64,000 bases of DNA from Candidatus Omnitrophus sp. (GCA_020719005.1 DYQZ01000001.1:5779-69778), one strand, 5' to 3'. Positions 5,197 through 62,000 are shown, counted from the stretch's first letter. Program-made: numbers and translations. The notes: generated by a model from the sequence alone, not told the origin.

Positions 5197-5199
5197 GAT

Positions 5200-6252
5200 A
5201 TGTCTGAAATAGTTGAACAGGCTTTTAATGAAGTGATCGGCCTTATTCATACGGCCCGCCGAAAAGCATTCCAGGCGGCGAATACGGTGTTGATCGAGTT
5301 GTATTGGCAGGTGGGGGAATATATTAGTCGCAAGATGAAAACGGCTGAATGGGGGGAAGGAGTTATTGAGAATTTGGCTCAATATATTGCAAAAGAGCAT
5401 CCGGATCTGAAAGGGTTTACGCGGCGTAATTTCTTTAGAATGAGGCAGTTGTATGAAGTTTATTGTGATGATCCAATTGTCGCGCCACTGGCGCGACAAT
5501 TACCCTGGGCGCACAATGTAGTTGTTTTAAATAAATGTAAGTTGCCGGAAGAACGAGAATTTTATACACGTTTAGCGATCAAAGAGCGCTTGTCCAAAAG
5601 AGCATTGGAACGGCAGATCGATGGGTGTGTTTTTGAAAGAAAAATGCTTGTTTCAACAAAAGTGCTCCCACTGGGAGCACTTTTATATCCCAATATACAA
5701 GAAGAGTTTAAAGATATTTACCTTTTAGACTTTCTGGATCTCCCCGCACATCATTCCGAACAGGATTTGCGCAGTGGTTTGGTCGCTAATTTGAAGAAAT
5801 TCCTCATGGAATTAGGGCGTGATTTTTGTTTTGTTGGTGAAGAATATCCATTGCAGGTCGGGAGCAAGGATTTTTCGGTGGACCTGGTGTTTTTTCATCG
5901 CGGCCTTTCTTGTTTGATCGCCTTTGAACTAAAGATCGATGATTTTAAACCAGCATACATGGGACAGCTTTCTTTTTATCTGGAGGCGTTGGATCGGGAT
6001 GTGCGTAAGCCCCATGAGAAGCCAAGCATCGGGATCTTGCTTTGTAAATCCAAAGATGCAGAAGTGGTCGAATATGTCCTGAGCCGCACGCTTTCGACCG
6101 CACTGGTCGCAGAATATAAAACACGTCTTCCCGAAAAAACAGTGCTTCAACAGAAGTTGCGGGAGTTCTACGAATTGGAGGCACAAAGAGATAGTGAGTG
6201 GAGACAAAACAAAAAAACAAAAGGAGCAGAAAATGAGAAAGAAAAACAATAA
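5200..6252 (+). CDS. YhcG-like PDDEXK-superfamily nuclease (DUF1016 family)
   Basis: 350 aa, with AGGTGA 7 nt upstream of the ATG. The C-terminal motif block DFSVDLVFFHRGLSCLIAFELKIDDFKPAYMGQLSFYLEALD matches the DUF1016/YhcG restriction-endonuclease-like core (D...ELK with a FYL..LD helix). The N-terminal helical domain (LIELYWQVGEYI) is typical of YhcG_N. Confidence 0.7.
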   Translation: MSEIVEQAFNEVIGLIHTARRKAFQAANTVLIELYWQVGEYISRKMKTAEWGEGVIENLAQYIAKEHPDLKGFTRRNFFRMRQLYEVYCDDPIVAPLARQLPWAHNVVVLNKCKLPEEREFYTRLAIKERLSKRALERQIDGCVFERKMLVSTKVLPLGALLYPNIQEEFKDIYLLDFLDLPAHHSEQDLRSGLVANLKKFLMELGRDFCFVGEEYPLQVGSKDFSVDLVFFHRGLSCLIAFELKIDDFKPAYMGQLSFYLEALDRDVRKPHEKPSIGILLCKSKDAEVVEYVLSRTLSTALVAEYKTRLPEKTVLQQKLREFYELEAQRDSEWRQNKKTKGAENEKEKQ

Positions 6253-6673
6253 AGGTTTTTCATTGGTGGAGCTGGCCATGGCCATGGGGCTTATGGCAGT
6301 GTTGGTTGGCGTCGTCGCGGCGGGTGGCGGGATGATGACGAAGTCGCGTGTTCAGCGGGAAGTTGATTCTATTGAGGGATTAAGACTGGCGGCACAAAAT
6401 TATCTATCGTCGAGCAGTTTGACTTTTACAGGGGTAAGCGTTACCGAACTTAAGAACAAAGGCCTTGTGCCGGCGACATTTGACCCGCTAAAAGCGAACA
6501 GTTTTGGTGGCGATTATAGCGTGAGTGCAAATACGGCGGACAGCACGCGTGTGGATATCGCGCTTGCTTTGATCCCGGAAGATGTTGGGACATCGCTTAG
6601 CGGCGCTTTTAAGGGCCGAGCCGAAGCTCTAACGTATGACAAAACAACCAAGATCTGGAAAGCCACATTTTAA
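6233..6673 (+). CDS. Prepilin-type (type IV pilin/pseudopilin) protein
   Basis: Start chosen at ATG 6233, with AAGGAG at 6221-6226. The ORF-track start 6194 is an upstream in-frame extension inside yhcG. The N-terminus MRKKNNKGFSLVELAMAMGLMAVLVGVVAAGG is a class III signal peptide: a G|FSLVEL cleavage/N-methylation motif with Glu at +5, followed by a hydrophobic helix. Confidence 0.75.
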   Translation: MRKKNNKGFSLVELAMAMGLMAVLVGVVAAGGGMMTKSRVQREVDSIEGLRLAAQNYLSSSSLTFTGVSVTELKNKGLVPATFDPLKANSFGGDYSVSANTADSTRVDIALALIPEDVGTSLSGAFKGRAEALTYDKTTKIWKATF

Positions 6674-6677
6674 TACC

Positions 6678-7094
6678 ATGATATTTTATCGACGGGCATT
6701 CAGTATGATCGAAATAACGCTGGCGTTGTTGGTTATGACACTTTTTATCGGAGGGGTCGTATCAACAGGGCGCGCGGTGATCGAGGATGCGCGCCAGGAA
6801 AAAGTATGGCGGACGCTCAGCGCATTTCTTGAGATCAGCGCGCAGTTTGATGCTGTGAAAGGGAAATATCCTGTCTCGATCGAGGAGGTCGTTTCATTCG
6901 ACACACGCGTACCCTTTTTTAATCCGTGGGGCAATGCGTATGTCGTTGTGCCGTCAGCTGCGTCGTGGTGTATCGAAACACGCGTTCCGTCGGTCCGAGG
7001 GGATATCCACCAAAGCAGTATTTTCGCGAGCGTTCTTTCACAAAAGGACGGGGATGTTCTTCGCGTGTGCAGGCCCGTTGTCACAACACCATAA
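6678..7094 (+). CDS. Prepilin-type pseudopilin (minor pilin-like)
   Basis: Start chosen at ATG 6678. The ORF-track start 6636 overlaps the previous gene. The N-terminus MIFYRRAFSMIEITLALLVMTLFIGGVVS has an A|FSMIEI prepilin-like motif (Glu at +5) and a hydrophobic helix, on a small (~138 aa) beta-rich body. Confidence 0.6.
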   Translation: MIFYRRAFSMIEITLALLVMTLFIGGVVSTGRAVIEDARQEKVWRTLSAFLEISAQFDAVKGKYPVSIEEVVSFDTRVPFFNPWGNAYVVVPSAASWCIETRVPSVRGDIHQSSIFASVLSQKDGDVLRVCRPVVTTP

Positions 7095-7106
7095 AAGAAA
7101 GAGCGT

Positions 7107-8027
7107 ATGGAACAAAAAGTCTTTTTACGTCGTGGTTTTACATTGATCGAACTGGCGATCGTGTTGTGTGTGAGCGCGATGCTCGCCGGGGCGCTGGTGC
7201 CGTCATTCGTTAAGAGTGCGCATATTGAGGCGGCACGTAAGACAGCGGCTGAAATGACGCTCCTTAAAGAAGCGGCACAACATTATTTCTTGAAGAATGC
7301 CGCATGGCCCGAGGATCTTGAAGCGCTGCGCGCATCGGGGGATATTGACGAGCGTTGGCCTGGAAGAAATCCTTTTGGAGATCTTTATGTTGTAACGCCG
7401 GACGTGGGGGGCCTTGTTCTATCAACAAAAGTTCCGTCGGCAATGGGGGATGTGGTGACGGGGGCTCTTGCGATGTCGGTCCAACAAGACGGAGAGGTGT
7501 CTTTACGCGTGACGTCTTCTCTCGATGGAGCGGGTGTGCCGGTGGGCGCGCTTTTGACTTGGCCTTCGGAGGATATTCCCGAGGGATGGGTTTTGTGTGA
7601 CGGCCGGGCGTTAGAACGCGCGGCATATTCGGCACTGTTTGCGCTGCTCGGCGTAAGTTATGGCGTTGGAGACGGAGTCACAACATTCAATGTGCCCGAC
7701 CTGCGCGGGCGTATTCCCGTCGGCTTGGATAATATGGGTGGCAGTGCGGCAAATGTGGTAAGCGGTCCATTGGCACGGACCCTCGGTGGAAAATATGGAG
7801 AAGAATCCCATGCGCTTACAGTGACAGAGATGCCGTCCCATAATCATTATGGATTCGGTGAAAATATTCCCCGCTGGCCGTATGGGACCTCCGGGCCGAA
7901 TAATAATCAAGGCCCTCCTCACGCTGATTATGACAATTATTTGCTCGGCACAACATTCTCCGGCGGAAACGCGTCGCACAATAATCTTCAACCTTCGATC
8001 GCCTTGTATTGGATGATCAAGACATGA
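7107..8027 (+). CDS. Prepilin-type pilin fused to a C-terminal phage tail-collar (Collar/MdpB-like) domain
   Basis: The N-terminus MEQKVFLRRGFTLIELAIVLCVSAMLAGALV is a G|FTLIEL class III signal peptide. The C-terminal half reads LTWPSEDIPEGWVLCDGRALERAAYSALFALLGVSYGVGDGVTTFNVPDLRGRIPVG...GEESHALTVTEMPSHNH. This matches the phage tail collar domain consensus (GW..CDG..L....Y..LF..LG..YG.GDG.TTF.LPDLRGR ... H.LT..E.P.H.H). A purine-rich SD-like stretch (AAAGAAAGAG) precedes the ATG. Confidence 0.7.
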   Translation: MEQKVFLRRGFTLIELAIVLCVSAMLAGALVPSFVKSAHIEAARKTAAEMTLLKEAAQHYFLKNAAWPEDLEALRASGDIDERWPGRNPFGDLYVVTPDVGGLVLSTKVPSAMGDVVTGALAMSVQQDGEVSLRVTSSLDGAGVPVGALLTWPSEDIPEGWVLCDGRALERAAYSALFALLGVSYGVGDGVTTFNVPDLRGRIPVGLDNMGGSAANVVSGPLARTLGGKYGEESHALTVTEMPSHNHYGFGENIPRWPYGTSGPNNNQGPPHADYDNYLLGTTFSGGNASHNNLQPSIALYWMIKT

Positions 8028-8908
8028 AATATATCCGATATCTTAGCTTGGTAGCATTGATCGTTTTTCATTGTTCTGCGTGGGCGATCGCAGCAAGGGC
8101 CGCGTCCATGATGACGCTCGCCGCCAAGGCAGATTGGTCGTGTGTGGAGTTCAAGACGCTTGGGCCGTGTTATCGAAAAACACTTCCCTACGTTGGGGTC
8201 AAGATCCGATATCGTCAGCCCGTATTATTGGTTGAGACGGTAAAGATCCCCGGAGATACGGTGATCAATGAAATGCGCGTGTTTCTGGGCGCACGATTAA
8301 AACAAAACGCGCGGGCGGCTATGAAACAGAGGACTGGGGTTGATGGCGATCCGTCCTCCGGCGGTGTCTTTAATGGCGACGGGACCGCCTTGTCGATGAA
8401 TGAAGCGCACGTATTCTCGTTCCCGTTGACAGATGTTTTCTCCACCGTTGTCGTAGCCCCTTGCGAAGGCGCGCCGGATTTAGCCGGGCCTATTGGTTAT
8501 ATCAGTGAGCTCGACGCAAAAGAGTGGCGCACGGGTGAAACGGAACAGCGGTTTTGCGGGGATCAGAATGGTGTATGGCCTTTGCCCGGGACATGGCTTG
8601 GCACATGGGGCCCGATCTATCCACGCACGGGCTGGTCGGTGGGAACGACGTCTCCTGTTGCCTCGGCCTTAAGCGCGTATCGGGCGGTCGATATTTCGTC
8701 CATCAAGCCGCAATTGCCGCGTGTTGTATTATCGAAAGTTTTATTCGTGCCGGATCTTTTCTGGGACCGGATGCAGATGGTTTATCCGTCGGCAGGAAAG
8801 TGTATCCGTATCGGTGAGGACCCGCGTTTATGGGAAAACGGAAAGAATTCTTTTGACGGGAAATTTGCATGGATATTCTGGCGAAAAAAAGAGTGTTGTC
8901 TTTTCTGA
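8009..8908 (+). CDS. Hypothetical secreted protein (Cys-containing, Trp/Gly-rich)
   Basis: 299 aa overlapping the previous stop. It has a signal-peptide-like segment MKYIRYLSLVALIVFHCSAWAIAARAAS, so an alternative start is ATG 8024. No recognisable catalytic motifs. Codon usage is consistent with its neighbours. Confidence 0.45.
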   Translation: MDDQDMKYIRYLSLVALIVFHCSAWAIAARAASMMTLAAKADWSCVEFKTLGPCYRKTLPYVGVKIRYRQPVLLVETVKIPGDTVINEMRVFLGARLKQNARAAMKQRTGVDGDPSSGGVFNGDGTALSMNEAHVFSFPLTDVFSTVVVAPCEGAPDLAGPIGYISELDAKEWRTGETEQRFCGDQNGVWPLPGTWLGTWGPIYPRTGWSVGTTSPVASALSAYRAVDISSIKPQLPRVVLSKVLFVPDLFWDRMQMVYPSAGKCIRIGEDPRLWENGKNSFDGKFAWIFWRKKECCLF

Positions 8909-9258
8909 TATCGACGGTAATAGCGTGTCACTTTGCATCATTAGCATGGTCGGGTGTATATGAATTAAGCCGTGTGGATTATTTTAATATATACGAAATT
9001 CGACGAGAGAAAAACGACACGGCTTCGCGGCAGGCATTCTCATCCGATGATCTGTGGGCGGTGGAAATGACCGATAGCGCCGGCCGTTCGTTTTTACAGC
9101 GTCCGCCGGAAGTTGTGATGGAACTGTTGAACGATCCCAATACTTTGAATGGATCGAAATATCTCGCATGGAACGAGGCGCGCATCAAACATTTGGAGCA
9201 GGCGGCGGCGTTGTTGGACGAAATATCAAAAGATCCGTCGAGGAGAACACAAAGGTGA
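8869..9258 (+). CDS. Hypothetical small secreted protein
   Basis: 129 aa with an N-terminal signal-like helix MDILAKKRVLSFLISTVIACHFASLAWSG. It overlaps the previous gene by 40 nt. No known motifs recognised. Confidence 0.4.
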   Translation: MDILAKKRVLSFLISTVIACHFASLAWSGVYELSRVDYFNIYEIRREKNDTASRQAFSSDDLWAVEMTDSAGRSFLQRPPEVVMELLNDPNTLNGSKYLAWNEARIKHLEQAAALLDEISKDPSRRTQR

Positions 9259-9262
9259 TGTG

Positions 9263-10480
9263 ATGACGTGGAAAGCAAAAGCATTGTTCATCGGCGCGGT
9301 GTTGTGGATCATCACCACAGGGGATGCGCCCGCTGATATTTTTGAGCGATACAGCGATCCGTCAATGTTGCGACAAGAGGCGTTGCGACTGGATCGCACA
9401 GGTTATGACGCCACACTCGTCGGCGGCTATATCGGCATTCCTGCGGGTGATGTCCTTTCGCCTTCATCCCGCCGGAACTGGTCGGCGAAAAGCGTTTCTG
9501 ATATTGATCCAGAGGAGGTCTTTGACAAAGATCTCCGGCGAATGATCGAACGCGACCGCAAAAGCACGGTGTCGTATTCGTCGGTGTTGTCTAACAACGC
9601 TCTTTTGTTGATGTCTTATGCCAGTCCCGCCATGGCGGATATTTTAAAACATTACAGAGCATCTTTGTTTGCCCGTATGAACATTGAATACGAGCGTTCA
9701 GCACAAAAAGACAATCCTTCGTCGGCGACGCTCGAGCTTTTCTATCGCGCCTCGCTTGATGCGTGCCTTTATCAGGAAAGGACGCGTGGATTTCTCGGCG
9801 GGCTTGAGGTGTGCAGGAAAGAGCCGCCGCTCGGGCACATCAAAGATCCGACCGGGCAATTTGTCACAACACACAGGCCGTGGGCGATCGTGATGGATGC
9901 GCTGACCCGCGTGGGTTTGAACAATCGCGCGGCGCGTCTGGCTGTTGCCATTGCGGGTGATGTGGTCATTGATCCGCAAGGCATCAACGAAACGGCCCAT
10001 ACACGTACATTTTTTACAGAGACCGAAGCCCGCGCTAAAGAGCAGATGACCGATTGGATCAAAATGCTAAGAAATTTTTCCGAAACAAAGCGCGTCAGTG
10101 ATGTTGAACTCGACATGTTAAGTTGGCCTGGTTTTTCTATAACACGAAATGCGCTGAACGATCTTTTGACCCTCAACGAAACAAAACGGGCTTTGTTCAT
10201 TTCCAGGATGGCGCAGTTGTCCGCGAGCGAGGATGTCAAAAACGACCTTCAGGGAGCGTTAAGGGCTTTAGACAGGGGGATGGCTCGTTCTGGAGCGGAT
10301 GATGTCTTTAAGAGCATCCTAAAGGCAAAGAAAGCGGTATTGATAGGGGTATTGGCAGACAAGAAAGACAAGGATGCTGGTTTTAGGGCATCGGAAGAAC
10401 TTTTTGAGGTTTTGTTAGTGGATGCGGATATTGCCAGAAAGCAAATTCTAACAAGCATGGGTGGCGTTAAAACCGAATGA
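9263..10480 (+). CDS. Hypothetical secreted protein
   Basis: Start chosen at ATG 9263 (AAGGTGA at 9251-9257). The ORF-track start 9149 overlaps the previous gene. The N-terminus MTWKAKALFIGAVLWIITTGDAPA is signal-peptide-like. The ~405-aa mostly helical body has no recognised motifs. This is the last gene before the intergenic region. Confidence 0.5.
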   Translation: MTWKAKALFIGAVLWIITTGDAPADIFERYSDPSMLRQEALRLDRTGYDATLVGGYIGIPAGDVLSPSSRRNWSAKSVSDIDPEEVFDKDLRRMIERDRKSTVSYSSVLSNNALLLMSYASPAMADILKHYRASLFARMNIEYERSAQKDNPSSATLELFYRASLDACLYQERTRGFLGGLEVCRKEPPLGHIKDPTGQFVTTHRPWAIVMDALTRVGLNNRAARLAVAIAGDVVIDPQGINETAHTRTFFTETEARAKEQMTDWIKMLRNFSETKRVSDVELDMLSWPGFSITRNALNDLLTLNETKRALFISRMAQLSASEDVKNDLQGALRALDRGMARSGADDVFKSILKAKKAVLIGVLADKKDKDAGFRASEELFEVLLVDADIARKQILTSMGGVKTE

Positions 10481-10974
10481 AACACGAAAGAAGTTTGTTT
10501 TGACGTAACATATTGATGGTATCTAACTTATGGAACATGTAAGAATGTCCAAAGTAACAGAATGGACAATCTTTTCCGACGGGAATGTGGGTTTATTCCA
10601 GGATGCAAGAATGATGAGGGTGTGAGCAATCGAAGGCGCCCCCTCACCCTTCTGGTTCGGGATGACGTGACGGAGGTGTGAGATGACGCGGCACGTCATT
10701 CCGCGGCCGACTTGTGGTGAGCCAGGTCGAACCAAGCCCGAGGAATCGCCGAACGTTGTTACGATCCGTCATATCGAGCCCGCAGGCAAACCGAGACATT
10801 GCTTACGCTATCAATAAATAATTTTTTATACTAATTAATATATAAACAACTAAAATTTATAGTAAAAATAAACAAAAAAGCGGAAATAAAAAATAAATCC
10901 AAAGAAAGTTTTCTCCAAAGCCGTAAGTTGTTATAATTTAAAGGATTACGATAATAAAAAGATTTCTCAAAAAC

Positions 10975-11002
10975 TTGCCACGCCTTGATAATATGCTATA
11001 CT
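10975..11002 (+). promoter_or_regulatory. Sigma70-like promoter for the giant gene: -35 TTGCCA (10975-10980), 16-nt spacer, -10 TATACT (10997-11002)
   Basis: Near-consensus hexamers with 16-bp spacing sit directly downstream of a very AT-rich stretch (10800-10970, UP-element-like). The predicted TSS is about 11009, giving a ~60-nt leader to ATG 11069. Confidence 0.4.
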
Positions 11003-11068
11003 CTTCATGTCGTCCTTGGTGGGACGATAGATATGTTTCATGAATAAACCCGTATCAAATGGGAAAAC

Positions 11069-14000
11069 ATGGACGAAAACCGCAAAGACCTCAACAAGAA
11101 CGACATTAGTCCCCTTTTTGGGGATGAGTCTTTGCGCGCGGTGTCTGAAACAAGTAATATTCCAGCAAAAACCCCCTCCACAACGCCCCTGACCCCGAAA
11201 AATGGGCATGCGGCTTTGGTCAATGAATTCAAAAATATGGTTCCCGACGGTGTTACGTCGAAGGATTCAGCTGAGACCTCAGTGCCTCCGGCAGGCGTTT
11301 TTGATGATGTGGACCCCGCTCTCGTAGGTGTGGGCATGGGTTCAGATGGTTTTGTGTTGGGTGCTGAGGATGCTATTGTCACACCCGAAGGTCCGTATTC
11401 CAGCCGTTTTAGCACGTGGATGCGCGTTGTTGCTTTTGCGATCGTTGCTATTTTTCTACCAGATCAGATCAGCTGGGCGTTTAATTATAATCCTGCCGTT
11501 CTTTACGGGAATCAGGTTTCAACGGTCATGGCCCCCATGCCCGGGATGGATCTTCTAACACCAAAACAACTTTCTTCCATGCAGGTTTCGGCCAGCGTTA
11601 CCGACCTCTTAAAACAAGTTTCTGAAAAGAGCGCGGATAAAGTAAGCATCAAACTTGATGATAATCAAGGACTTATGGGCCTGAATGGAAAAGAGCCCGC
11701 TATCCTTGAGATCAACAACGAAGCCAAAATGACCGCGCCCCAGATCGAACAGGTGCGTGCGTGGTTGAGCGATCCGAAGATCAATGCCCTCAATTGCGGT
11801 GTGTTCGCGCTGAAAGAAATATTGTCTGGTAATGGTATAGATAAAACCGTTACAGAACTTGCTGTTACGACGATCAGCACCGATTTGATGGCTAATATCA
11901 TCAAGCCTGGCGATAAAAAACTTAAAGTTACGCTTTATTCCATGACCGAAGTTGCTAAAGCCCTTGGTCTGAACGTCAAGGCCTTAAAAGTGGCACCGGC
12001 TGAAATGCTCGCCCTTCCCAAGCCGTTCGTGGCGCATCTTTCCGACGAGCACTTTATTACAGTTTTAAAGACAGATGGCAATGATGTTGTAGTGAGCGAT
12101 ATGGGCGAAACGCTCCATATGGCGCGCGACGATCTGGCCGCGAAAGCCAGTGGTTTTGTCCTTTCCCGCGTTGATGCCAACATCCTTCCTTCCTATAAAG
12201 AGGTTTCTTCATCCGCCCAGGCTTTCGTGTGGGGCGACCGTTGGAAGCGTCAAAAGCTTCCGGGGCTTGAATCTGCAGGGTCACAGCTGAGAAAATATGC
12301 GATCGACATGACGATCAAACTCGTCACGGCGATCATCGCTTTCTTTTGTGGTCCGGCGGGTTGGATCTCCTGGATCGTTGCTCAGATCGCCGATGCGCTT
12401 ACTAGGATATGTGTTGTGGCGGGTGCTTGTACGGCAAAACAGGCGTTTATCATTAATACAGCAATAGCTGTGGCGACGATCATCTGTACGCTTGGGGCAA
12501 GTTCTTTAAATACAGCAGGACAACAAACCGCAGCACAAGCTGGCGCACAAGCTTTCAAGGGGGCTCTTACAACCGCGTTAGGAACTGTTGTAGGGACTGT
12601 TGTATATGCGGCAATCGGCCTTGCTATTGGTGTAGGCGCGGCGCATTTATTATGGAAAGTCAATCAAAAGATAGACGCAAAATATGGTTCTAGTTCACCG
12701 ATCGCAATGACGTTGAAGGCGGTTGCGTCCGCGGTTGTGACGGGTGCATGTACAACCGGTCTGTTTAGCTGGGGGAACGCTATTAAAGATGGTCTGAAGA
12801 GCATGGCCAGCGGAGTGGGTACAGAAGCGGCAAAACAAGGCGCACAACAAACGGCTGCGGATTTTGCTGTAGCGATGTTTGTTAAGCTTCCGAAGTCGGT
12901 ATTAGATGGTATTGGTATAACCTCAAGTAGTGATGCCTTTAGGAGATTTTTATATACACAAGGCGGTTCTTTGGCTGTACGCATGGCATTTAAAAATAGC
13001 AAGGATACGGCATTGGTTGATGCGTTGGCCACTCTTGGTGGAGCGGCAGCTGGACTGGCGGGGTCTTATATTGAACATGGAGCTACGACTGGAGACTGGG
13101 CGGGTGTTCCAACGTCTCTTGGAGAAGAAATAGAGCCCGTTGATCCTACAACTGTTAATACGATGGCGGAAGCCACTACATCCGACGCGCCCAGGTCAGC
13201 TGTAGGTCAGTGGATCGACACAAAGATCCATAATACGGGTTGGACAGGGGCGATCGTTAGAACGATGGGCAGAGCAACTCTCGAGGCGAGCGTTTCATTT
13301 ACTATGGGCAGGATGGAAAAGAGCGTTGTTGGCGAAGATGATGGTTCGGCCGCTTATCAACAAAAACTTTTGGGGTATCGTTCGTTGAGTTTTGGTATTG
13401 CTGGAATGATCACAGGGGTTTATATAGGAGTACGTTCGGCGTTGGATTCCAATGGAACCGGCATGGTATCTTCTTTCTTTAAGGGTTTTGGGGGTGGCAT
13501 GGTAACTGGCGCTATGGATAGTCTTACCAAAGCGTATGGTAAGCAGGATTTTGATACGATCATGAGTAATGCTCCTAAGCAGGGCGGGATAGGCGGGGAT
13601 GTCGAATATAACATGGCTTTGGTAAATGCGGCTCAAGGCATGTCTAATAATACAGGTATGACCTATGAATATTTCAGCAGTTGGGATGCGCAATGGAAGA
13701 CGATGAAAGAAGAGAACGCCAAGTCTGACAATCCGGTGAGTCAAAAAGAATTGCGCAAGGAATATCAAAAAGCTTTTGGTCGAGATATTCAAAGCACCCC
13801 CGGCATCACAGGGATGAACGGTATTTTAAAGACAGCTAATATTGATATGCGTGTCAAAGCTGTTGAGAGCGGTGTGAGTTGGGCTATGACCCGCGGGCTT
13901 ACTTCAGGCTCTCTTGAGCATCAGCAAGCCAAACGTGCGGTGGTCAAGCTTGGATTGACCTATCGTGGAAAAGAATTATTTGCTGGATCTGATCGACAGT

Positions 14001-41000: not shown

Positions 41001-44000
41001 AATTGATCAGTGATTATCAGACGCAGTCGGTATTGATGCACACGATGAATCGCCGTTTGTTGACTGCGGTGGATGTAAATGGCCGTAATGTTGATGTGTT
41101 GGTGTTCGATATCAATGATGTGCGTGAATCTAAAAAGAGCATTGCGGGGCGTGCATTTCGTTTGTCGGATGGGATGCTGTTCGCGGAATTCCATCAGGAA
41201 AGAAAATGGCTCAAAGCGCGTTCTACGGTCGTTTTCTTCAATGACTTTGGTCTGCCGAGAAGTGAATATCGTACGAAGGTTGCTTTTGATCAGACGCTGA
41301 CACAGCCGTCTTCTCGTTATGAAGATAAGAAGATCTATACTGCGCTTGTTGATCCGGCAACATCAAAGAATAATGCTATTCTCGCTGAGATCACCCCTGC
41401 TCAAGGGTTTGGCGGGGCATCGGTTTCCTGGACTCGTTTAGTGGGCTCTGTGAAGTTGAATGATTTTATTCTCGGAAAGTCGGTCGATGCTGAAGAGTTC
41501 AAGGGTGCTGGTACGGTTGTAACTAGCCAAGTTAGTCTGATGAGTGACCATGAGGCGTTGAGCCTCGCGCAGCGTAACGGAGTGTTCTATTATCATGATC
41601 GCGCTATCTTCAAGGTGGACAGTCGTTCCATTCCTATGGGGTGGATGGATTTCCGCAGTACAAGTTTCTTGGGTAGTGCTGAAGAATATTTTGCCGTTCA
41701 GTTCAAGCATAGCGTTGAGCAGAACAGTCTTTGGGCGAATATCAAGGATTTTGCGGTCCGTGGTAATGTGGCCCCGACTTTTGCGATCCTGCTTTTGGGG
41801 ATAGGCGCGCTGACACTTTTATTGCCGATCTTCCTCTTGACCGTGACGAAACTGATCGCGATCGTATTAAATACGTTGATCGGTCTTGGCCGTACTTATA
41901 AAACGGTCGGCGGTTTGAACGAAGCATTGAAAGTCCTTCCTGATGAGATGGAGCTCCGGGTTCGTCTGGCGTTCATTAATCGTCATTTGTATATTGTTGA
42001 TTCATACAACAGATACCTGCTCGGTCTTTATAGAAAAGATCCGCAGGTGCTGGTAGATACGTATTACCCGGCAGGTCATGAACAGCGCGCACAAGTTCTT
42101 AACGATATGGCGAAGACAGACCTGAACGACCGTAAACAGCGCATGATGTTCATTGAACGTAATGTGATCCGTCCGATCGTGAATTTGATCCTGATCATGA
42201 TGATCGATCAGGCGGAGAAATGGGATGCGGACATGAAGGGCAAGCGTCCGGGATATTTGGTGCCGTTCTTCAAGTCTGAAAAACAGTCTTGTGGTTACTT
42301 CGTGTTCACGGACCGTGAATTACGCCGTGCATTCGAATATTATTTCAAGGATCTGCAGTCTCCTCGTGGTAATGAGATCGCTGACCCGATCATCCGTCAC
42401 GGGTTGAATAAATATCTGACACCGGAAGCGTTTAAGTCATTTTTGACAGATATGAAAGCTGACAAGAAAGTAAAGGAAGTGGTCAGTAAGAAGATCGAAA
42501 AAGATCTGTTCATGTCGCAGGGAGAACAAAAGGGCCTCAAGCAGTGGATATCCGATCGTTACAAGACGGAAGGGTATAAGCTTCCTGTTTTCCCGATCAC
42601 CTCACCGCTGGTAAAGACGATCCGTGCGTTGGGTTGGATGATCGGTGTTGGTGGTGTGATATTGGCGGTTGGTTTAGCTATTGTCGGGACGATCATCCCG
42701 GCCCAGGGGCTTGTGTTCTTGGCCCTCTTGGGGATCATCTTTGGATATCAGATACATGCGATGGCACAGCATTTGAAGTTCCATATGAATGATTGGGCCA
42801 TGGCGATCTTGAGGATCATTCGGACAGCGAAGAATTATAAATATAAGAACGATCCTGCGATGCAGGAGCGGTTGAAGACTAAGAAACGGTTCTTCTATAT
42901 TTATGGCGCGACCTGGTTTAGTTTCAATGCAGTGTTGATCGGGGCTGCGACCTATTTCACGGTCGGCCTGCCTGCGATCGGATGGGTCTTTGCTGGATTT
43001 ATTATGGCCTTTACGCTGCGCGAGTCGATCCGAAGTTTCTGGTATCTTTTCGTTGAAGGTGCGGCGACGGCGGCAGAATCAAGGATGCAGGTTCGTACGA
43101 TCAAGTCGGTACAGGATATCAAGAAAGCGCATATGGTCATGCTGAAGGCACCGGAGACGGGGCGTTTCTGGCAGATCTCTTTCCGTAAGGTGCTTGTTGA
43201 GGATACGCTGGTGAAGTTCGATCTGGCCGACGAACAGACGGCTGCGGCGCTTCTGACGATCATTCGTGAGAATGTTACGGTTGAGGAAGCTGTTGAGATC
43301 CTGCGCGGCGTTCAGTTGACCCGTCAGGCAGAAGATGAGATCAAGAGCTTCTTTAATAAGATGGTCTTGGAGATCTCGCTTCAGAACGGGTCAAAGGGTT
43401 TTGATGAGTATGTAAGGAATATTGATATCGATCAGCTTCTACCGGTCATTTTCAAGGGTACAGGTAAGAAGCGCGTTCTTCCGACCATTGAGTTCCTGGA
43501 TGGAGAAGATATTGAAGATGAAACAGGCCTGACACGTCAGACGCTGTGCTCTGGATTTGAGATGTTCAAGGGTGAGTTCGCCGGACCTTGGGCGATCTAT
43601 TTGAGCGGGCGTTTGCGCAAGGAATGGCTGAAGGATGTAAGCAAGGGAACGGCGGATGAGCTCGTGGAGATGTTGAAAGATCCTTCGTTAACGCTCAGGC
43701 AGACCATTGTGATGATCATGGCGCGCAATATGACCAAGGACAAGCGTGAGGAGCTCGTGAAAGCCATGATGACGCCGACAATGAAGTTTCGCGCGGATTT
43801 TGCACAGATCAGCAAGGATCCGGCACTTCTTAAGATGCATCGTGACGGCGCGATCCAAAAGGACATTGATGGTGAAGCCAAGAAGATCTTTGGTGCTGTC
43901 AAGAAAGACCGGGCAACGGCAGAAGCGAAGATCATCATGACTGCCCTTGGTATTGAGGATAAAAAGGCGTTTGATAAGCAATGGAAGGCTGTTTCAGGCG

Positions 44001-47000
44001 CACTTATCAAGGGTTGGATCATGTTTCGCGCGGATGGGTATTTGAAGACGCTTGAAGAAGCGGAGATCGCCGGTGAGTCAACGATGAGCGCGTTCCTTGA
44101 GTTTCGCGGAAAGACCAAGGAAGAGATCAAGGCGTTGTTGCCGAAACTTGTGATGTTCGTCCATGTGCATGAAGATATTGATCCTGATCTGGCAGAAAAG
44201 AAATTGAAAGCTGATATCGAGAAAGCAGAAGCGGCTTTAGCGGAAGCGACGGAAGCGGATAAGCCGAAGAAGCAGGCAGAGATTGATGCATTAAAGGCCA
44301 AAAAGGCGTGGGGCGGGACTGAAGCTAAAGAGATCATCGACATGCTCTGTAGCGACGAGCGCGGGTATGTTCTTAATACGTATGGCGATAAGATCATTGT
44401 TTCGACCAAAGATCTTAAAAAAGGAAATAAGATCGAGAATGATGGCCTGGAATTTGATTTCCCGAAAGATCAGGGGGCGCGCTGGACGGTGAAGACAGAC
44501 AAGTGGAGTATTTGCGGCCGGTTCATTGAAGAATATCTCAAGCGCAATGGCAAGTCTGACGCCATGATCTTTAATCTGGACCGAGATCATTTTTATTTTC
44601 CGACGGATTTTCTGGCTGTTCCGCTGGTGGCCGACAAGTTCACACATGATCCGCGCCTGGGGCTTATGACTATTGCGATGGAGATGAAGACGGGTTATGT
44701 CAGCCCGGCGGCAGAAGATCATCGTGTGGCGGAAGATGTCTGGAACTTGCGTACACTTTTTGCTGAGTCTGAGATCGGGACACACGCATTTTATGGTCCT
44801 GGTATTGTGCGTTGGAATGCGATGCGCCGCATGGGGGCGTTCATGTCGAACATTGAGGATACCGGGGGAGCACAGGAGGCGATCATGGTCGGGTATCGTG
44901 CGGAAAATTCACCGCGCATGAGCATTGGCCGCCCGCGTGAGATGATCCCCGGGTCGCTGTTGGCATTCCAGAATCGTTTCGGTGGGCTTGTTATCGACGA
45001 GTTCCTTTCGGTCCACTTCCAGATGACGATGAGCACGGATGAACTTCACTGGACGGAAAAAGCAACGCTTCTGCAGAATTTTGATTTCTATATCAATAAG
45101 CCGCTGGTGCCGCGTTATAACCTGATGATCTTCATCTTTGCGTTCTTCCTGAACTTCACTCCGTTCAGTTCATTGGCGTGGCCGCTGTTGTTCATCGGGA
45201 TCCAGTATATCCTTGCTGAGGCGATCACGGCGGGCGGCGTCAGGATTTATACGTCCAAGTATGGTTTCTGGAGGGGGTATGCGATGTATATGAAGCGGAT
45301 GTGGAGCTTGGTGTTCACATTCGGTTCGCTGGTCCCGCTTCATGATGAGAAGGTGCGCAATGCCCATAAGGGAACTGCGGGTATTTTCTCAAGCGGTGTT
45401 AAGGATATCGTTTATCCGCGCCTGTCTTTCAGTGAACTTTATGATCAGTATCGTACGTCGATCTATTGGGGTCTTCTTCTGGGTGCGATCGCCTTGATGG
45501 CGCCGTTCCATCCGGTGGCGGTGTTGAGCCAGATCTTCTTCTATGTATTCCCGGTCGTGTTCATTTTCGCGCCGTTCATGAAAAATGGTAGATCGAAGCC
45601 GATGGTCTCTGGGTCGATTTTTGGAGCGATCGCGGTAGCGGTGGTTGTTTATTCGCTGGGATATATCACAGCGCCGGTGTTCCTGGCGGCTATGACGGCG
45701 GGGCTGGCGGCCATTATTGTTGCCGGTGTCAAGGCGCAGGAGAAATATACCACCGGCATCACGATGGGGCTTTTGGCCATACCGTATGCCGTATTGGATT
45801 TTATGACGCTGTTCATCCTTAGCAATAGCGACATGCATAAGGATAAGATCAAAGTAGATATCTTTAAGAATGGTTTGGCATTTGTATGGAAGAAGCACGC
45901 TAAGGATTCAAAGCCGATGGCGTGGTATCAGAAGATCGTTAAGAGCAAGAAGCAGACACAGCCTCAAGCGGCTGCCGTGAAGGTGGAGCAGGCCACGGGT
46001 GCTGTGGGCGCTGGTAATGCTCCGGCATTGGATCATGGCAAGGATGGCGTGAAGAAGCAGGAATCTTCCAAAGATAGCAATCCTCCCCGTGCAGGCCCTG
46101 ACGTAAAGTCTTCTAATAAAGTATCAGAAGATCCGAAGAAGTCTCAAGCCCCACCGTCGTTGGCCGCTATTATTGGTCTTGAGATCGCCCGTCGTATTCA
46201 TGCGCGTGAAGTTAAAGAAGCGGAAAAAGTCGCGAAGCAGTCGCAGGCGGTTCAGGCGAGCGGTAAAAAGATCGAAAAGTTCTATCTTCCGACACCTCAA
46301 AAAGAATTTATCAAGCGCATTGAAGAAGCGGCCTTACAAGTGAGCCGTCGGCATGAATATAAGGCGGCATTGGTTAATACGTGGGCGAATAGCGAAGAAG
46401 AATACAAGGCTACGATCGAGAAACTCACCGAAGAATTTTCACTGACTATTTTCCAGAGCATTGCGACAGCTGTTGGTATCGTTTATAGCGACAAGACAAC
46501 CGCCAAAGAATTAGCTGATCAGATCCGAAAGATAGATCTCTCCAAATACAATACTATCGGCAAGCTTGCGATCTACAGCGGCCCGCCTGGCGGAGGCAAG
46601 GGCGCGGTGTGGGAGCGTTTTGAAGCGCTGTATGGCGATATGATACAGAAGTTCACCCTTTTTCATACGCGTAATATCCGTGACGGCGAGACGATGGGGA
46701 AAGAATATCATTACCGCAATCCTGAAGCGTTGAAGAAACTGGAAGCTGAAGGAAAGATCATTACAGCATCTGTCAACGGGCAGTTACAAGGATTGGCGAC
46801 GATTTCTTTCAAGGATGATTATGATTATACGGACCCTCAAAGCGGCAAGAGACATGAAGGATCTTCTGAGGTGGTTGGCCTGGATGCTGTTTTTAATGGC
46901 GTAAAGATCGTTGTTCTTGAATGCGGGTTGGCATGGTTTGAGGCGTTGCATGATAAGTATGGGGACGCGTTGACGAGTATCTTTATATCACCGTTTAGCG

Positions 47001-50000
47001 ATGCAAGCATTGATACGGCTGTAAGTGATATGAAGGTTGTGTTTAAGGCCGCTGTTGGTCTTGAGATCGCCAAGCGTATTCATGCGCGTGAAGGCAAGGA
47101 AGCCAAGGTGGTGTTTGATGAGTCTGATGCGAAGCAGAAAAAAGGCGAGCCGGTAACAAAGTTTTATATTCCAACTCCGCAGAAAGAATTTAATAACCGC
47201 ATTAATGAAGCGGCCCTTCAGGTGAGCCGTCGTCATGAATATCAAAAAGCTCTGGTTAATACGTGGGCCAGCAGTGAAGCTGAATATAAAGCAATGATCG
47301 ATCAGTTGACCGAAGGGTTTGCGCTGACGATCTTCAGGAACATTGCTGATGCTGTAGGTATTGTGTATCAAGAGACAACGACAGCAAAAGAACTGGCTGA
47401 TCAGTTGGGTAATATTGATCTTTCTCAATATGATACGATCGCGAAGTTTGCGATCTTTAGCGGTCCACCCGGCGGCGGTAAAGGTGCTGTGTGGGATCGT
47501 TTTGAAGAGTTGTATGGGAAGATGACAACAAAGTTCGTTTTTTTTCATACACGTAATATCCGCAAGGGCGAGGTGATGGGAAAGAATTATCATTATCGCA
47601 ATCCTGATGCATTAAAGAAGCTGGAAAGTGAAGGCAAGATCATCACCGCTTCTATTAATGGTCAAGCGCAGGGATTGGCGGTAACGAGTTTTGAAGATGA
47701 TTATTCCTATGTTGATCCGCAGTCGAATGAAAAACATGAGGGAAGGGCAAGTGTTGCTTGTTTGGATCAGGTATTTAAGGGCAATAAGATCGTTATCCTT
47801 GAATGTGGTTTAGCCTGGTTCGAGGCGCTCCACAAGAAATATGGAGATGAGCTAACAAGTATTTTCATATCACCCTTCAGTGATCAGGAATTGGCGTGGA
47901 CAGAGATGTCGGTTGAAGATCGCAGGAAGTATGAAGCTTATGATCATAGAATTCTTGAGCGTGCGGCAGCGTTAAATAATAGAAGCGCTGCAATATTAGA
48001 TAGAATTGCGCACCACAAGAAATTTTCACACGATGGTAACGCGTTGCCTTTCTTTGGAACGACGGTGGTTTCTTTTGTTTCAAAGAATTCGGAAGCTTTC
48101 TTACGTTTGGTCGCTTTTCGTGATCGTCTTAAACAGGCTTTAGAGCGGGCTGGTTTGTCTAAATTTATGGCTTGGACGGAAATTGATTCTTTGCATATGA
48201 CGGTATGTGATATTGATAAAGAGCTTTCTGCTGAAGGGTTTGATGAGCATGTGATAAGGCGTAAAGAAGAAGCGCGCGAAGTGTTCAGTAAGATAAAGAA
48301 TATCACACCTGTTTCTGCGCAGATGAAGGGGCTTGGTTATAAGCTGGCCTTAACGGCACATGTTTTATTTAATGACCCCAAAGAGTTGGATAAGATATTT
48401 GAGGTCGAGGATTCTATAAAAAAGGGCACGAGTGAGCCTAAACAACAACGTGATTTCACAGGTCATATTACATTGGGTTATCCTGTTGGTGTGATGACGA
48501 TGGATGAACTGAATAAATTATTTGATATCTTCAAGCAGTTCTCGAACGATGATCTTAGAGATATTGTGTTTGATAATGTCACCTTTACACGATTCAGTAA
48601 TATGAATACATATGGAAGAGAGTTGTCCCTTGACCTTAATTCTGGTGAGATCCTTTCTTATGGTAAAGATCATGAAGTGTTGCTTGATATTTTTAATGGA
48701 GATCACGGCAAGCTTATTCATGCTCTCGGAGTTTGGAAAAAAGAGTTTAAAGATGTTTTAGGTGTCGAGAAGTCTTTTGAACAGTTGACGACTTTTAAAG
48801 ATGATGATCATCCACAAGGAACAGAATATTTACGTATCATTGATGGGCAAGATCAATATACCGGTGAAGTTCGTCCCAGAGATCTTTGTCATGCGCAGGG
48901 CACAGAGCATCGTGCCGTTGCGGTTATTCTTTATGATCGTGAGGGGCGTATTCTGGTGCAGGTGCGCTCGAGAAAGAAGAAGTTCTTTCCTGGCATGAGA
49001 GATGTGTCTGCGGCGGGTCATCTTGCTTTGGAGAAAGAATATTTGGATGGGGCCATTAATGAAACAGAGGAAGATGTCTTTGATAGCCGACATAAGCTTG
49101 ATCCTGATCGTTTTCAATACGTGGGAACATTTCCTGCGCATCATCGAAATGAGAAGATGGGCTTAAACGATAAAGAGATGGTTGTTTTGTATATGTATCA
49201 GGTGAGGGATGAAGAGAAGGCTCGCGTTGCAATTCAGGCATCTGAAGTAGAGGCTGTCGAATGGGTTTCTTTTGAGAAAGAGCTTTCGGATTGGCAGATG
49301 TGGTATACAGCGGTTGGTAATGGACATGAGCAAGGGAAGTTTGCCAATATTCAAGGGATGGCGGTTGGGTATGCCATTCTTGGAATTGATATTCTTGCCA
49401 ATGAACGTATCGTTGAAAAGATGGTGGATGTTGTAAAAAGGGGTCTTTCTATTAATTCCATGGCGTTTGCTGGAGAAAATAAGTTGGTGTCAACGGATAA
49501 ACAGGGTGCTGTTGAGACGCGGGCAGGTCCTGAAGAGATAAAAACACCTGCCAAGACTGCGGCTGAGTCAAGCCGTACGGCGCCACCCGTGGAGAAGGAA
49601 TTGCCTATTGTTCCTGCCTCATGCGTTAATTATTCCGCACGTTATGTTGATCTGCAAAAGATGTTTGAGACGCTTCGTGAATTGTTATCCTTCAAGAGTC
49701 CGACCGGCCAGGAAGGCCAGGTGCGTTCTTATATTGAAGCCTGGTTCCAGGCACAGCATATTCCGGTTACGGTTTTATATAAAGGGGACGCTCCCAAGAA
49801 CCTTGTCGTTGAGCTTGCGGCGACGTCGGGTCAGGAAAGCGTTGGGGTCATTGCGTTCGATGCGCATATGGATATTTCCGATAATAATGCTGCCGACCTG
49901 GTGTTGGATCGGAATGCTCAGAGAGTGATCGCCACAGGTAGGGATAACGGGGCCAATGGTCTTGATGACAAGATCGGTATTGCGGTGATCCTTGAGATGA

Positions 50001-59000: not shown

Positions 59001-62000
59001 TGCTTCCGCTCTTTGGCATTCATGATACGCAGCGCGGCTTTAAATTGTGGCGCAAAGAGATGATCCCGCTTTTTATCAAGTATGCCACCGAACACGGACT
59101 TGCGTTTGATACGGAACTCTTGTTACTTACACGGATGACGGGGAAGAAGATCATAGAAGTGCCGATCGCTTGGTTTGATTCTGCGGAAGCTAGCACGGTC
59201 GCGCTCGGCGTGGAATGGAAGGTCATGTTGCTTGCGGTCATCAAACAGGCGCGTCATTGGCTTAATCCTTTGATGTGGATGAAAGTTCGCTCTGCGATGA
59301 AGGACTCGGCGCGGTCGGTGCCGGATGAGAAGAAGGCATCAGCTTGGGCAGTGGGTCTTGAGATATTGCGTGTGGTCGGGATCTTCGGCTGGAAAATAAA
59401 GAGATTGAGGGTTGAGCACAATGTTACGCTCGCCGTGAATTTCCTGCGGTCGATCGGAGAAGAGGCGCGTGCGAAGGTGATCGAAGAAATGGCGCGTACC
59501 GGGCGTGTGCGGGCAGGTCCGTTCAAAGGGTTTTTGGCAACAACGTATCGCTGTTTGAATGGTAGTGAATATATCCTTCTTTCTGATCTTCCTTTATATG
59601 CCAAGCGTGGCTGGTTAAGTGCATGTGAAATGAATGCGAGTGTTGTGCACGAGAGCGGTGCGCTTTCAGCGTTCAGGCTTTCCCATGAAGATAATGTTAT
59701 TTTTGAGTCATGGTTCCGTCGGGCTTTTAATGTTGCCGCGTTGAAGCCTGTTGAGATCATAGATAATTTTACCGAGACACTGATCGAGCATCAGAGCGCT
59801 TTTGGGACAGGCGTTGTTGATCTGCGTCAGGTGCCGGAGAAAGTGGATGTTATTGTTGTCGGCGATCTGCATGGCCGCATTGATACGCTCGAGTCTATTT
59901 TAGGTCATCGGATCAAACGCGTGGTTGCTTTTCAGAAAGAATTGGAAGAGTCTGTTCTTGAGAGGGTCAGCTATGGACAGGCAGTTCTGCTCTTTTTAGG
60001 GGACGCGGTCCATGCAAGCCCACAGCGTGAGCAGGTGAGCAGGGCCGTTGAACAGGCCGCTTTTCAAAAAGGCAGAACGCTTACGGCATCTGAAAAAGAA
60101 GCCATCATCGCACCGTATTTCATCAATGCCGAAGCTTCTTTCAAGACGATGCAAAGGATCATGACACTTAAGATCATGTATCCGCGGCATGTGTATTATC
60201 TCTTGGGGAATCACGATCTCCTGGATTATCCCTGGGAAAAATTCACCGATGGTGTTGAAATTGATCAGACGAAGAATTATGTAGAGTATTTGCGAAGCGT
60301 TATCGGGGACGCGGGGGTTGAGAAATATAAAGAAGCCATGCGTTTGAGCCCGGTCCTTTTCTTGGGCAGGAATATCGTGGCGGCTCATGCCGGTCCAGTG
60401 AAAGGCCCTTGTTCGCTCGATGAGATCGGTCGGATCAATACGGCCTCGCTCGTCGATACCCGCATGCGGGACCTGTTGTTCAGCCGTTATTACAGGTTGT
60501 CATTAGTTGAGAGCAAAGATTACATGTATGACGAGTCTGATGTTGACGGCTTCTTGCGTGCTATTGGTTATGATCCGAAGATGACATCGTTCATTGTTGG
60601 CGATGCCCCGTTCGCAGGGAGCGCGTTCTATCATCAGGTTTTCTTGAATCATTATGTTGTTGCCGCAGCCAAGCGTGAGGCCGGGTATGCACTTTCCCGT
60701 GGGGGGCGTCTGGAGTTTGTGGTAGTTGAAGAATCTTCTTCTTTCAGGGTGTCCTCCTTTTTGCCCGTGTCTGTTGCAGCAGTGGCGGCATTCTCTCCTC
60801 GGGATATTCATGTACATGATCTGGTGGGTTGGGGTGGGATGCTTGTTGGTACCATGCTCGCGCTATTCTTATTGCGTAGAACAGATCGCCGGGAAGCTGC
60901 GAAAGAGGATCTGCCGAGAGATGGTTTTCGTACTGTTGATGAAGCGGCGTGGTATGCCATGGAGAGCATTAGCGGATCAACCCTTCCAGGATCCAAGGAC
61001 AGCGTTGAATGGGCGGGATGGATATACAAGAACGATGAGGGGACATATGCTTATACGTCCGCCCAGAAAGCAGGTAGAACGGGAGGCATTCTTGAGGGCA
61101 AGCCTAAGAACACAATGGCAGTGTATCATTCGCATTGTGCTTCCGGTCTTTACAGCGAATTCTTTTCTGATATGCAGACAGACCCTGTTACAGGAGAGCG
61201 CTTAGGGGATAAAGATAGCGCGCGTGCGCATCGCATTGATTGTTATGTTGTTACTCCGTCGGGAACAAAAAGGAAATACGAACATTTAGGGGAAGATGTT
61301 TTCGTTCTTTCCAATAAAGGCAAGAGCCAAACAAAAGACATGTTCGCCCGTCTGGATGAGTGGGGTATTGCTGATCCATGGATCGGTTTCTTGATGTCAC
61401 CTCAGGTGTGGATGAGGATGTTCGTCCGCCGGTGGTTGATCATACAGCCGGTCACAGGGGATCAGCATGGCGCTGCGACATCCATACCCCGGCAGATGCT
61501 GTTGGACAAGACAATACAATATAACGAGCGTGACCTGGAGATCTCTTGGAAGGCCAGAGAAGCGTTGATAGGGAAGACCGATCTGCATTGGAAAGATCCG
61601 GTCGTCTTAAGCAAGTCTGCCGCGACGGACGCGCTGATCGATCAGCTTGTTGAGAAGATAAGAGGGCATGAATTTGATGAAGGGGTCCCGTTGGCAGAGA
61701 TCGTTAAGACAAAGGGCAGGATCTTGTGTGAGTCGTTTGAATTCGTGCTGAGGGAGATATTAAAGAACGCTTTTGATGCGTATGCCATGACTGATCTGAA
61801 GTCTGAGACCGTGAAGGGGCCGGTGAGGGTGCGGATCTTTAGGCAGGGAGCTGACCTTGTCGTTGAAGTATCAGATAACGGCGTCGGGTTCGTTGAGGGC
61901 GTGGTCAAGGCAAAGATCTCAGGCAAGATCATTTTTGGCGGTAGAGGCATAGGCCTTTTGCGTTCGAGGATCCTTTGCCAGGTGCGCGGCGGGGATGTAA

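Follow-up and report, generated by a model that had tools for sequence, protein, structure and literature searches.

A stretch of 64,000 nt from Candidatus Omnitrophus sp. (GCA_020719005.1 DYQZ01000001.1:5779-69778; hereafter the window, with positions counted from its first nucleotide) contains part of a giant gene, in which two consecutive copies of a guanylate kinase (GK)-like module are encoded. This tandem pair is old and conserved, not recent. On balance we favour the interpretation that it comprises two divergent P-loop domains with the GK fold, the second of which would be completed in a non-canonical manner, and that their acceptor is a compound other than GMP.

Duplication and fold of the module

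A self-BLASTP of the giant protein, conducted in overlapping chunks of 400 aa, aligned aa 11707-11997 with aa 12001-12289 (nt 46166-47038 and 47048-47914) at 70.4% identity over 291 aa (E 1.6e-151). The repeat offset of 294 aa corresponds to 882 nt, and a nucleotide repeat finder returned the same 882-nt spacing with 73% nucleotide identity over 300 nt. The intragenic tandem duplication that had been proposed in an earlier note on this DNA is therefore confirmed, and every peptide stretch listed there was found in both copies. Since the chunked search detected just one further internal repeat in the whole frame of 17.6 thousand aa, the module pair does not reflect background repetitiveness.

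The earlier note had assigned the module to the GK fold based on its P-loop and the TR..R.GE..G..Y motif, and had regarded the repeat unit of about 295 aa as one domain. In that register Pfam PF00625 matched copy 1 with 20.9 bits (below the cut-off of 25.2 bits) and copy 2 with 33.6 bits (above it), covering only profile positions 3-74 of 182, and the NCBIfam and Pfam GK profiles were matched over their first 70-78 positions only. The copies missed the functional Gmk threshold of NCBIfam TIGR03263 (37.5 and 46.3 bits, cut-off 160) as well as the threshold of PRK14738 (27-31 bits, cut-off 263).

The match spans the whole GK fold when the module is read in a B-then-A register, in which the B part extends from a short helix before the P-loop to SIFISPFSD, and the A part starts at 'GLEIA.RIHARE' and ends with the helix that follows 'ALVNTW'. 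A B-then-A profile built from the window and its homologues was collinear with solved GKs in three blocks, namely the P-loop and nucleoside monophosphate (NMP)-binding part (profile 9-94 versus GK 29-115), the 'sIFI.P.S' strand (profile 132-157 versus GK 132-156) and 'RINEA..QV....EY..VLVN' (profile 216-246 versus GK 170-200). The P-loop core, the NMP-binding subdomain, the lid, the last strand and the C-terminal helix were all recovered, which upholds the assignment to the GK fold. The repeat unit, however, is not a single domain: it consists of the C-terminal third of one GK fold and the N-terminal two-thirds of the next, and the repeat boundaries cut through the fold and do not flank it.

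Based on split-profile hidden Markov models (HMMs) the order of the parts in the window is A1-B1-A2-B2, all on the plus strand and with unrelated sequence on both flanks. The half-unit A1 (46160..46456; split-profile match of 124 bits) includes the lid helix GLEIARRIHARE (46175-46210) and the last core strand with the C-terminal helix RIEEAALQVSRRHEYKAALVNTW (46316-46384). No P-loop part was found before A1, where the upstream sequence is of low complexity. B1 (46544..47002) was recognised by Pfam, NCBIfam, the split profiles and its motifs as the N-terminal two-thirds of a GK fold, and contains the P-loop GPPGGGKG (46580-46603), the phosphate-binding motif FHTRNIRDGETMGKEYHYR (46661-46717), the stretch KIITASVNGQLQGLA (46754-46798), LECGLAWF (46916-46939) and SIFISPFSD (46976-47002). 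Together with B1, the half-unit A2 (47027..47341), with its lid helix GLEIAKRIHARE (47057-47092) and its last strand and helix RINEAALQVSRRHEYQKALVNTW (47198-47266), forms a complete, canonically ordered GK fold. The second N-terminal GK part B2 (47426..47884), identified by split profiles and motifs, carries a P-loop (47462-47485), FHTRNIRKGEVMGKNYHYR (47543-47599), KIITASINGQAQGLA (47636-47680), LECGLAWF (47798-47821) and SIFISPFSD (47858-47884).

B2 is followed by a tail (47885..48019, plus strand) that runs into the next domain. It bears no real similarity to an A part according to the profile alignment, the flanks of ABAB pairs elsewhere and a predicted local distance difference test (pLDDT) score of 62-69. 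The tail was also considered as a degenerate A part and rejected as such, the profile alignment being meaningless and the resemblance to the lid being confined to a short R-I-x-x-R (YDHRILER, 47939-47962).

A 650-aa model of the tandem, predicted with AlphaFold2, reached a pLDDT of 83 and a predicted template modelling score of 0.78. The core strands of A1 (residues 83-86; pLDDT 86-96) and A2 (377-380) were assigned as paired in this model, which gives a hint that both strands sit in sheets.

Catalytic and recognition residues

The copies were compared with yeast GK, in the numbering of which R38, R41 and Y50, with E44, bind the phosphate of GMP, R131, R135 and R146 belong to the lid, and S34, E69, S80 and D100 are the guanine-recognition positions, alongside which Y78 is considered. 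The structure of the yeast enzyme with GMP was reportedly determined by Stehle and Schulz.

The P-loop G-x-x-G-x-G-K including its Lys is present in both copies as G-P-P-G-G-G-K. The equivalents of R38, R41, E44 and Y50 are likewise kept in both copies, within FHTRNIRDGETMGKEYHYR and FHTRNIRKGEVMGKNYHYR, and in the family alignment R44, R47, E50 and Y56 are invariant. The position of yeast D98 is occupied by Glu in both copies, and an acidic residue that follows strand 3 (E127) is conserved. The lid residues R131, R135 and R146 are kept in A1 and A2, in R-I-H-A-R-E and as the Arg of 'NRINEA'; in the chain after B2 no lid arginines were found by alignment.

The guanine-recognition positions, on the other hand, are all replaced in both copies (S34 by L/F, E69 by T, S80 by L/A and D100 by G, with Q or G at the position of Y78), and the family has its own invariant residues N79, Q83 and G84 instead of the guanine contacts. 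With none of the guanine-recognition positions retained, GMP is probably not the acceptor. Judged by these residues the module looks like a phosphotransferase in which the grip on the phosphate is kept and the recognition of guanine is gone.

Divergence of the two copies

Over 294 aligned codons the two copies share 67.7% of their nucleotides and 47.6% of their third positions. The proportion of synonymous differences (pS) is 0.70, corresponding to a saturated synonymous rate (dS) of about 2, at a non-synonymous rate (dN) of 0.26 and a dN/dS of about 0.13. Considered by part, dN/dS between copy 1 and copy 2 is 0.195 for the A halves and 0.075 for the B halves (74.8% identity between B2 and B1). 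At the protein level unit 1 and unit 2 are 71.7% identical, and unit 2 and its counterpart in L004, the closest genome locus found, are 71.6% identical. The duplication had been described as recent-looking, which does not hold, since the synonymous sites have reached saturation and the distance between the copies equals that of each copy from its counterpart in another genome.

The dN of the A halves amounts to 0.22 relative to the L004 copy in the same position, 0.27 across positions and 0.265 within the window. The A halves are therefore slightly nearer to the same-position copies of L004, a weak signal that fits a duplication predating the split of the two lineages. Internal domain repeats have been found to be common and mostly old in giant proteins of the Omnitrophota, with 65% of the long Omnitrophota proteins repeating a Pfam domain (10.64898/2026.06.07.730766).

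Distribution and architectures of related modules

A word-indexed search with a single sequence as query yielded seven homologues, one of which is named 'Candidatus Omnitrophota bacterium' by its source. With the alignment as query the same search gave 3 matches instead of 7, P-loop words probably swamping the candidates. When 1.84 billion cluster representatives were searched exhaustively with HMMER, 1,653 matches fell below 1e-3, mostly ordinary GKs matched in the N-terminal part only; 31 cluster representatives were below 1e-30, most of them within proteins of 1,000-7,600 aa. Furthermore, 18 loci were detected in a scan of one genome per species. They are located mostly in metagenome-assembled genomes (MAGs) labelled Omnitrophota and in a few cases in MAGs labelled Planctomycetales, Planctomycetia or Nitrospirae.

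According to the split A/B profiles pairs are the rule among the 18 loci. The order ABAB occurs in the window, L001 (twice), L004, L005 (twice), L006, L008, L009 and L015 (twice), and the order BABA in L010, L011 (twice), L012, L013, L014 and L016. Single units in the canonical order BA are present in P0009, P0010, P0012, P0013, P0016 and P0026, and single AB units in P0020, P0025, P0028, P0029, P0032 and P0035, where no A part followed B even with the HMMER filters switched off. The flanks of the ABAB pairs in other genomes showed no relationship to GK on either side. The rotated order is thus represented both by ABAB pairs with unrelated flanks and by six representatives with a single A-then-B unit. 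The pairs are duplicated as blocks; in the groups L009/L015 and L011/L013, first and second units taken from different pairs cluster according to their position.

Truly recent copies also exist in the family. The units of L006 at 2998-3831 and 3862-4713 (JADFXH010000005.1) are 99.9% identical at the nucleotide level (831/832), which points to either gene conversion or a duplication of very recent date within the old pair architecture, and near-identical units are present in P0008. The L006 contig contains four separate GK-like loci. In L001 (ENA ERZ1286166 contig_3842) an 8.5-kb direct repeat of ~100% identity (~690-3700 and 9190-12200) holds a whole ABAB pair. The 8.5-kb repeat, the L006 units and the 65% of long Omnitrophota proteins reported to repeat a Pfam domain support the suggestion of the earlier note that duplication is a growth mechanism of giant genes; the repeat in L001 itself may have arisen by a genuine segmental duplication of recent date, or else be an assembly artefact. 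The spacing of this repeat ranges from 8498 to 8501 nt, the giant gene is split into many adjoining gene calls, and the sequence of P0001, for example, ends with 'GPPREEKAR' in place of the expected 'GPPGGGKG'. This looks like homopolymer indel errors of a long-read assembly.

A second, more divergent GK-like subfamily comprises P0014, P0015, P0024, P0025 and P0027, which are likewise tandem and occur in both orders. Its P-loop reads 'SAAPGTGKGE', its NMP-binding part contains a large insertion and the insertion in its lid is much longer. In P0025 a cytidylyltransferase-like domain was detected near both ends (Pfam match at ~aa 2242-2329), which suggests that this protein carries a very long-period repeat.

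Comparison with known systems

The GK-like family has the fold in common with Gmk/GUK1 (PF00625, TIGR03263) at only about 20% sequence identity. In contrast to Gmk it contains an extra β-hairpin of ~20 aa in the NMP-binding part and ~45 extra lid residues, the guanine contacts are replaced and a hydroxyl residue after the P-loop Lys is missing. Its domains are moreover embedded in giant proteins, where they form conserved pairs in B-then-A and A-then-B orders.

The GK domains of MAGUK proteins are eukaryotic protein-binding modules that have lost a functional P-loop. Guanine recognition is lost both in these domains (DLG1, PSD-95, CASK, MPP5) and in the GK-like family, whereas the P-loop and the lid arginines are kept only in the latter. 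The closest known polypeptide with multiple GK domains is FAP42 of the ciliary central apparatus, which contains four of them and was among the top structural matches of the module at about 15% identity. FAP42 is eukaryotic and its multiplication looks independent of that in the GK-like family; to our knowledge neither a permuted order nor a lid insertion has been reported for it.

In the circularly permuted P-loop GTPases RsgA/YjeQ and YlqF/RbgA, rotated segments are thought to have arisen via a tandem duplicate. By analogy, the single BA, BABA, ABAB and single AB arrangements of the GK-like family would correspond to the series predicted by the 'permutation by duplication' model. The two cases differ in that those proteins are GTPases and not NMP kinases, and in that permuted packing in the GK-like family is a prediction from sequence. 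No relevant report of a circularly permuted guanylate kinase was retrieved by a literature search. In two reports on giant Omnitrophota proteins (10.1101/2023.11.21.568195 and 10.64898/2026.06.07.730766) the word 'guanylate' occurs zero times, and no GK-like domain, pairing or permuted order is mentioned.

Proposed completion of a second domain and alternative explanations

We propose that B provides the short helix, strand 1, the P-loop, the NMP-binding subdomain with its extra β-hairpin and the strands up to SIFISPFSD, while A would provide the long lid helix in which R-I-H-x-R-E is located, a helical insertion specific to the family, and the last core strand (LVN) with the C-terminal helix. 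B1 and A2 would form one canonical domain. A1 and B2 are under the same purifying selection and would therefore make up a second domain whose segments are ordered non-canonically. Provided that the four halves are all folded and under selection, a non-canonical segment order is required of one or more GK domains in the ABAB pair. Two circularly permuted domains would result if each A packed on the following B; alternatively, A1 would fold back onto B2. Both domains are predicted to bind ATP through the P-loop Lys and to hold the phosphorylated acceptor by the conserved Arg, Arg and Tyr, and the lid arginines would then close over the site for phosphoryl transfer. Since 2H phosphoesterase, NUDIX and UPRTase domains adjoin the pair, the acceptor is probably another nucleotide-like phosphate compound.

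Several points weigh against this proposal. Neither copy has a hydroxyl residue after the P-loop Lys, where the sequence is G-K-G-A. In canonical GKs an S/T stands at K+1 or K+2, and the G-K-G form is similar to that of adenylate kinases, in which it reads G-K-G-T; the five library GKs have T/S at K+2, a position which is variable across the GK-like family. The missing hydroxyl could impair the handling of Mg-ATP. The input alignments of the structure prediction comprised 15-17 sequences only. With respect to the age of the pair, the positional signal relative to L004 is small beside the sampling error on 100-150 codons and the window copies sometimes pair up in neighbour-joining trees, so that gene conversion or an independent duplication in the lineage of the window may have to be considered. 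Finally, the cytoplasmic placement of the module suggested below has as its only basis a crude scan for hydrophobic segments combined with the positive-inside rule.

A further-reaching version of the proposal is that the ABAB pair represents a natural circular permutation of a GK fold, with all stages of 'permutation by duplication' side by side in the family, and that the permuted domains are active non-GMP kinases in a nucleotide-processing assembly line, the substrate being for example a product of the adjoining 2H phosphoesterase or NUDIX domains. We regard this version as possible but doubtful.

The earlier note had suggested an active kinase paired with a regulatory pseudokinase. As stated this is not supported, since both N-terminal parts keep all family-invariant residues and are under equal or stronger constraint; the idea survives solely in a modified form, because no lid or C-terminal part follows B2. 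B1 and A2 would then constitute the sole complete active domain, B2 a regulatory or nucleotide-sensing pseudokinase and A1 a structural leftover. The tail after B2, which has neither homology to A nor the lid Arg pair, would be in agreement with this explanation, as would the lower confidence of B2 in the tandem model (pLDDT of 43 over the NMP-binding loop, residues 480-491). However, B2 holds all family-invariant residues, and among the four halves it is under the strongest constraint (dN of 0.18 to its L004 counterpart versus 0.243 for B1; dN/dS of 0.075 relative to B1). A1 is under the same constraint as A2 (dN to the respective L004 counterparts 0.221 versus 0.218), its core strand is placed within a sheet by the model, and the ABAB order is kept across many genomes, which would not be expected of a leftover. 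We therefore consider this explanation improbable.

Similarly little weight is given to the possibility that the domains are non-catalytic ligand-binding modules comparable to those of MAGUK proteins, which would organise the giant protein by binding either a protein segment or a ligand that is phosphorylated. While the lost guanine recognition is common to both, almost all members have a Gly-rich P-loop with its Lys (G-P-P-G-G-G-K, or A-P-G-T-G-K in one subfamily), the lid arginines and the acidic residue E127 are conserved, and true GKs outscore MAGUKs by sequence as well as by structure.

The notion of a recent lineage-specific duplication, i.e. of a domain 'undergoing expansion', may draw on neighbour-joining trees in which the window copies group with each other and not with the copies of the relative L001, and on the nearly identical units of L006 and P0008. 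It is nevertheless very unlikely in view of the pS of 0.70, the third-position identity of 48% and the nucleotide identity of 68%, a divergence within the pair that equals the divergence from a different genome, and an architecture common to many genomes. A mis-assembled, wrongly expanded repeat, which the earlier note had named as a condition that would overturn the duplication, can practically be dismissed, since the copies differ at 32% of their nucleotides with a pattern of purifying selection and an intact frame, beyond what an assembler could create, and since the same ABAB pair is present in many independent assemblies from other samples.

Host gene and genomic setting

The pair is encoded within a single plus-strand frame without stop codon that extends from nt 11048 across the rest of the window to nt 64000 (first ATG at 11069), which corresponds to at least 17,651 aa and is still open at the 3' edge. 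Pfam domains detected along the giant protein are Peptidase_C39, NAGPA, 2H phosphoesterase, NUDIX, Peptidase_M28, UPRTase, HAD, PEP-utilizers_C, Metallophos, HATPase_c and Bac_transf, with Peptidase_C39 in the N-terminal part (aa 294-372). A type II secretion-like set of genes is located 5' of the giant gene (T2SSE, T2SSF, a pilin-like gene and TraU; 2378-8908), in which the GspE-like ATPase and GspF-like genes occupy 2378-5196.

Giant Omnitrophota proteins designated Archaeovorins have been described with an N-terminal C39 peptidase, many transmembrane segments, scattered divergent enzyme domains and a conserved upstream type II secretion-like locus (West-Roberts et al. 2023, bioRxiv 10.1101/2023.11.21.568195). 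The host gene resembles them in its N-terminal C39 domain, its many transmembrane segments, the upstream type II secretion-like set and its divergent enzyme domains, including NUDIX, HAD, part of a PEP/pyruvate dikinase and HATPase_c. By its predicted domain content it is of the Archaeovorin type.

The GK-like pair is directly followed by a 2H phosphoesterase domain (48020..48475, plus strand; PF08975, E 5.8e-8) with the H-x-T motifs HMTV (48194-48205) and HITL (48464-48475), and then by a NUDIX hydrolase domain (48905..49282, plus strand; PF00293, E 5.8e-9), an M28 peptidase, UPRTase and HAD. The NUDIX box of the window has an apparent Asn where Arg is usual (…AINETEED…). A NUDIX domain after the GK-like module was found in many homologues (P0007, P0017, P0027, L004, L005), and a cytidylyltransferase-like domain in the same protein as the module in P0009 and P0025.

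A Kyte-Doolittle scan of the giant frame revealed 19 hydrophobic segments, about ten of which form a transmembrane-like cluster just 5' of the module (41783..45820, plus strand). The first hydrophobic segment after this cluster lies at nt 55340, and between the two transmembrane clusters only nucleotide- and phosphate-handling enzymes are encoded. The module and the enzyme domains next to it thus lie on the same side of the membrane, no hydrophobic segment having been detected between nt 45820 and 55340. A Lys-rich stretch immediately follows the last helix of the upstream cluster, and according to the positive-inside rule the region is probably cytoplasmic. No Pfam family was detected for the membrane region 41783-45820. 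It shares motifs such as '…FDFYFNKP.IP..NL.IF.F.FF…' with transmembrane parts of the homologues P0008, P0024 and P0027, and there may be a conserved membrane module preceding the GK-like pair.

The other internal repeat of the giant frame (59303-59698 versus 62897-63268; 41% identity over 134 aa, E 2.8e-19) matched no Pfam family. Its copy at 62897-63268 contains 'LSLVHEIGA', and a domain with the same motif is located directly upstream of ABAB GK-like pairs in other genomes.

Only the plus frame is open at the duplicated module. A 201-aa antisense open reading frame on the minus strand inside copy 2 (46988-47593) was rejected as a gene because 4 stop codons interrupt the corresponding frame of copy 1, and no Rfam RNA family was detected within 44000-50000. 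The long genes of the window are all located on the plus strand. The GC skew is positive in all 2-kb windows (0.08 to 0.30), and the cumulative skew climbs steadily from 1 to 64000. A gene for a YhcG-type PDDEXK nuclease lies among the secretion-system genes (5200-6252), and the pilin-like gene after it (7107-8027) codes for an N-terminal methylation motif, a phage tail collar domain and also a Gp10 C-terminal-like domain.

Implications

A recent duplication enlarging a giant gene would be ordinary, since domain repeats are the rule in such proteins; the pair, however, is old. The modules belong to a distinct, apparently undescribed subfamily of the GK fold, in which the catalytic and phosphate-binding machinery is kept and the guanine contacts are all replaced, and which is confined to giant multi-enzyme proteins mostly of MAGs labelled Omnitrophota. 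This subfamily points to an undescribed nucleotide-related reaction in organisms whose giant proteins are functionally opaque. Furthermore, canonical, doubled and rotated orders are present in one family, all under purifying selection. The family is therefore a candidate for a natural circular permutation via tandem duplication and, if this is true, would be an unusually complete natural example of a permutation arising in this way.

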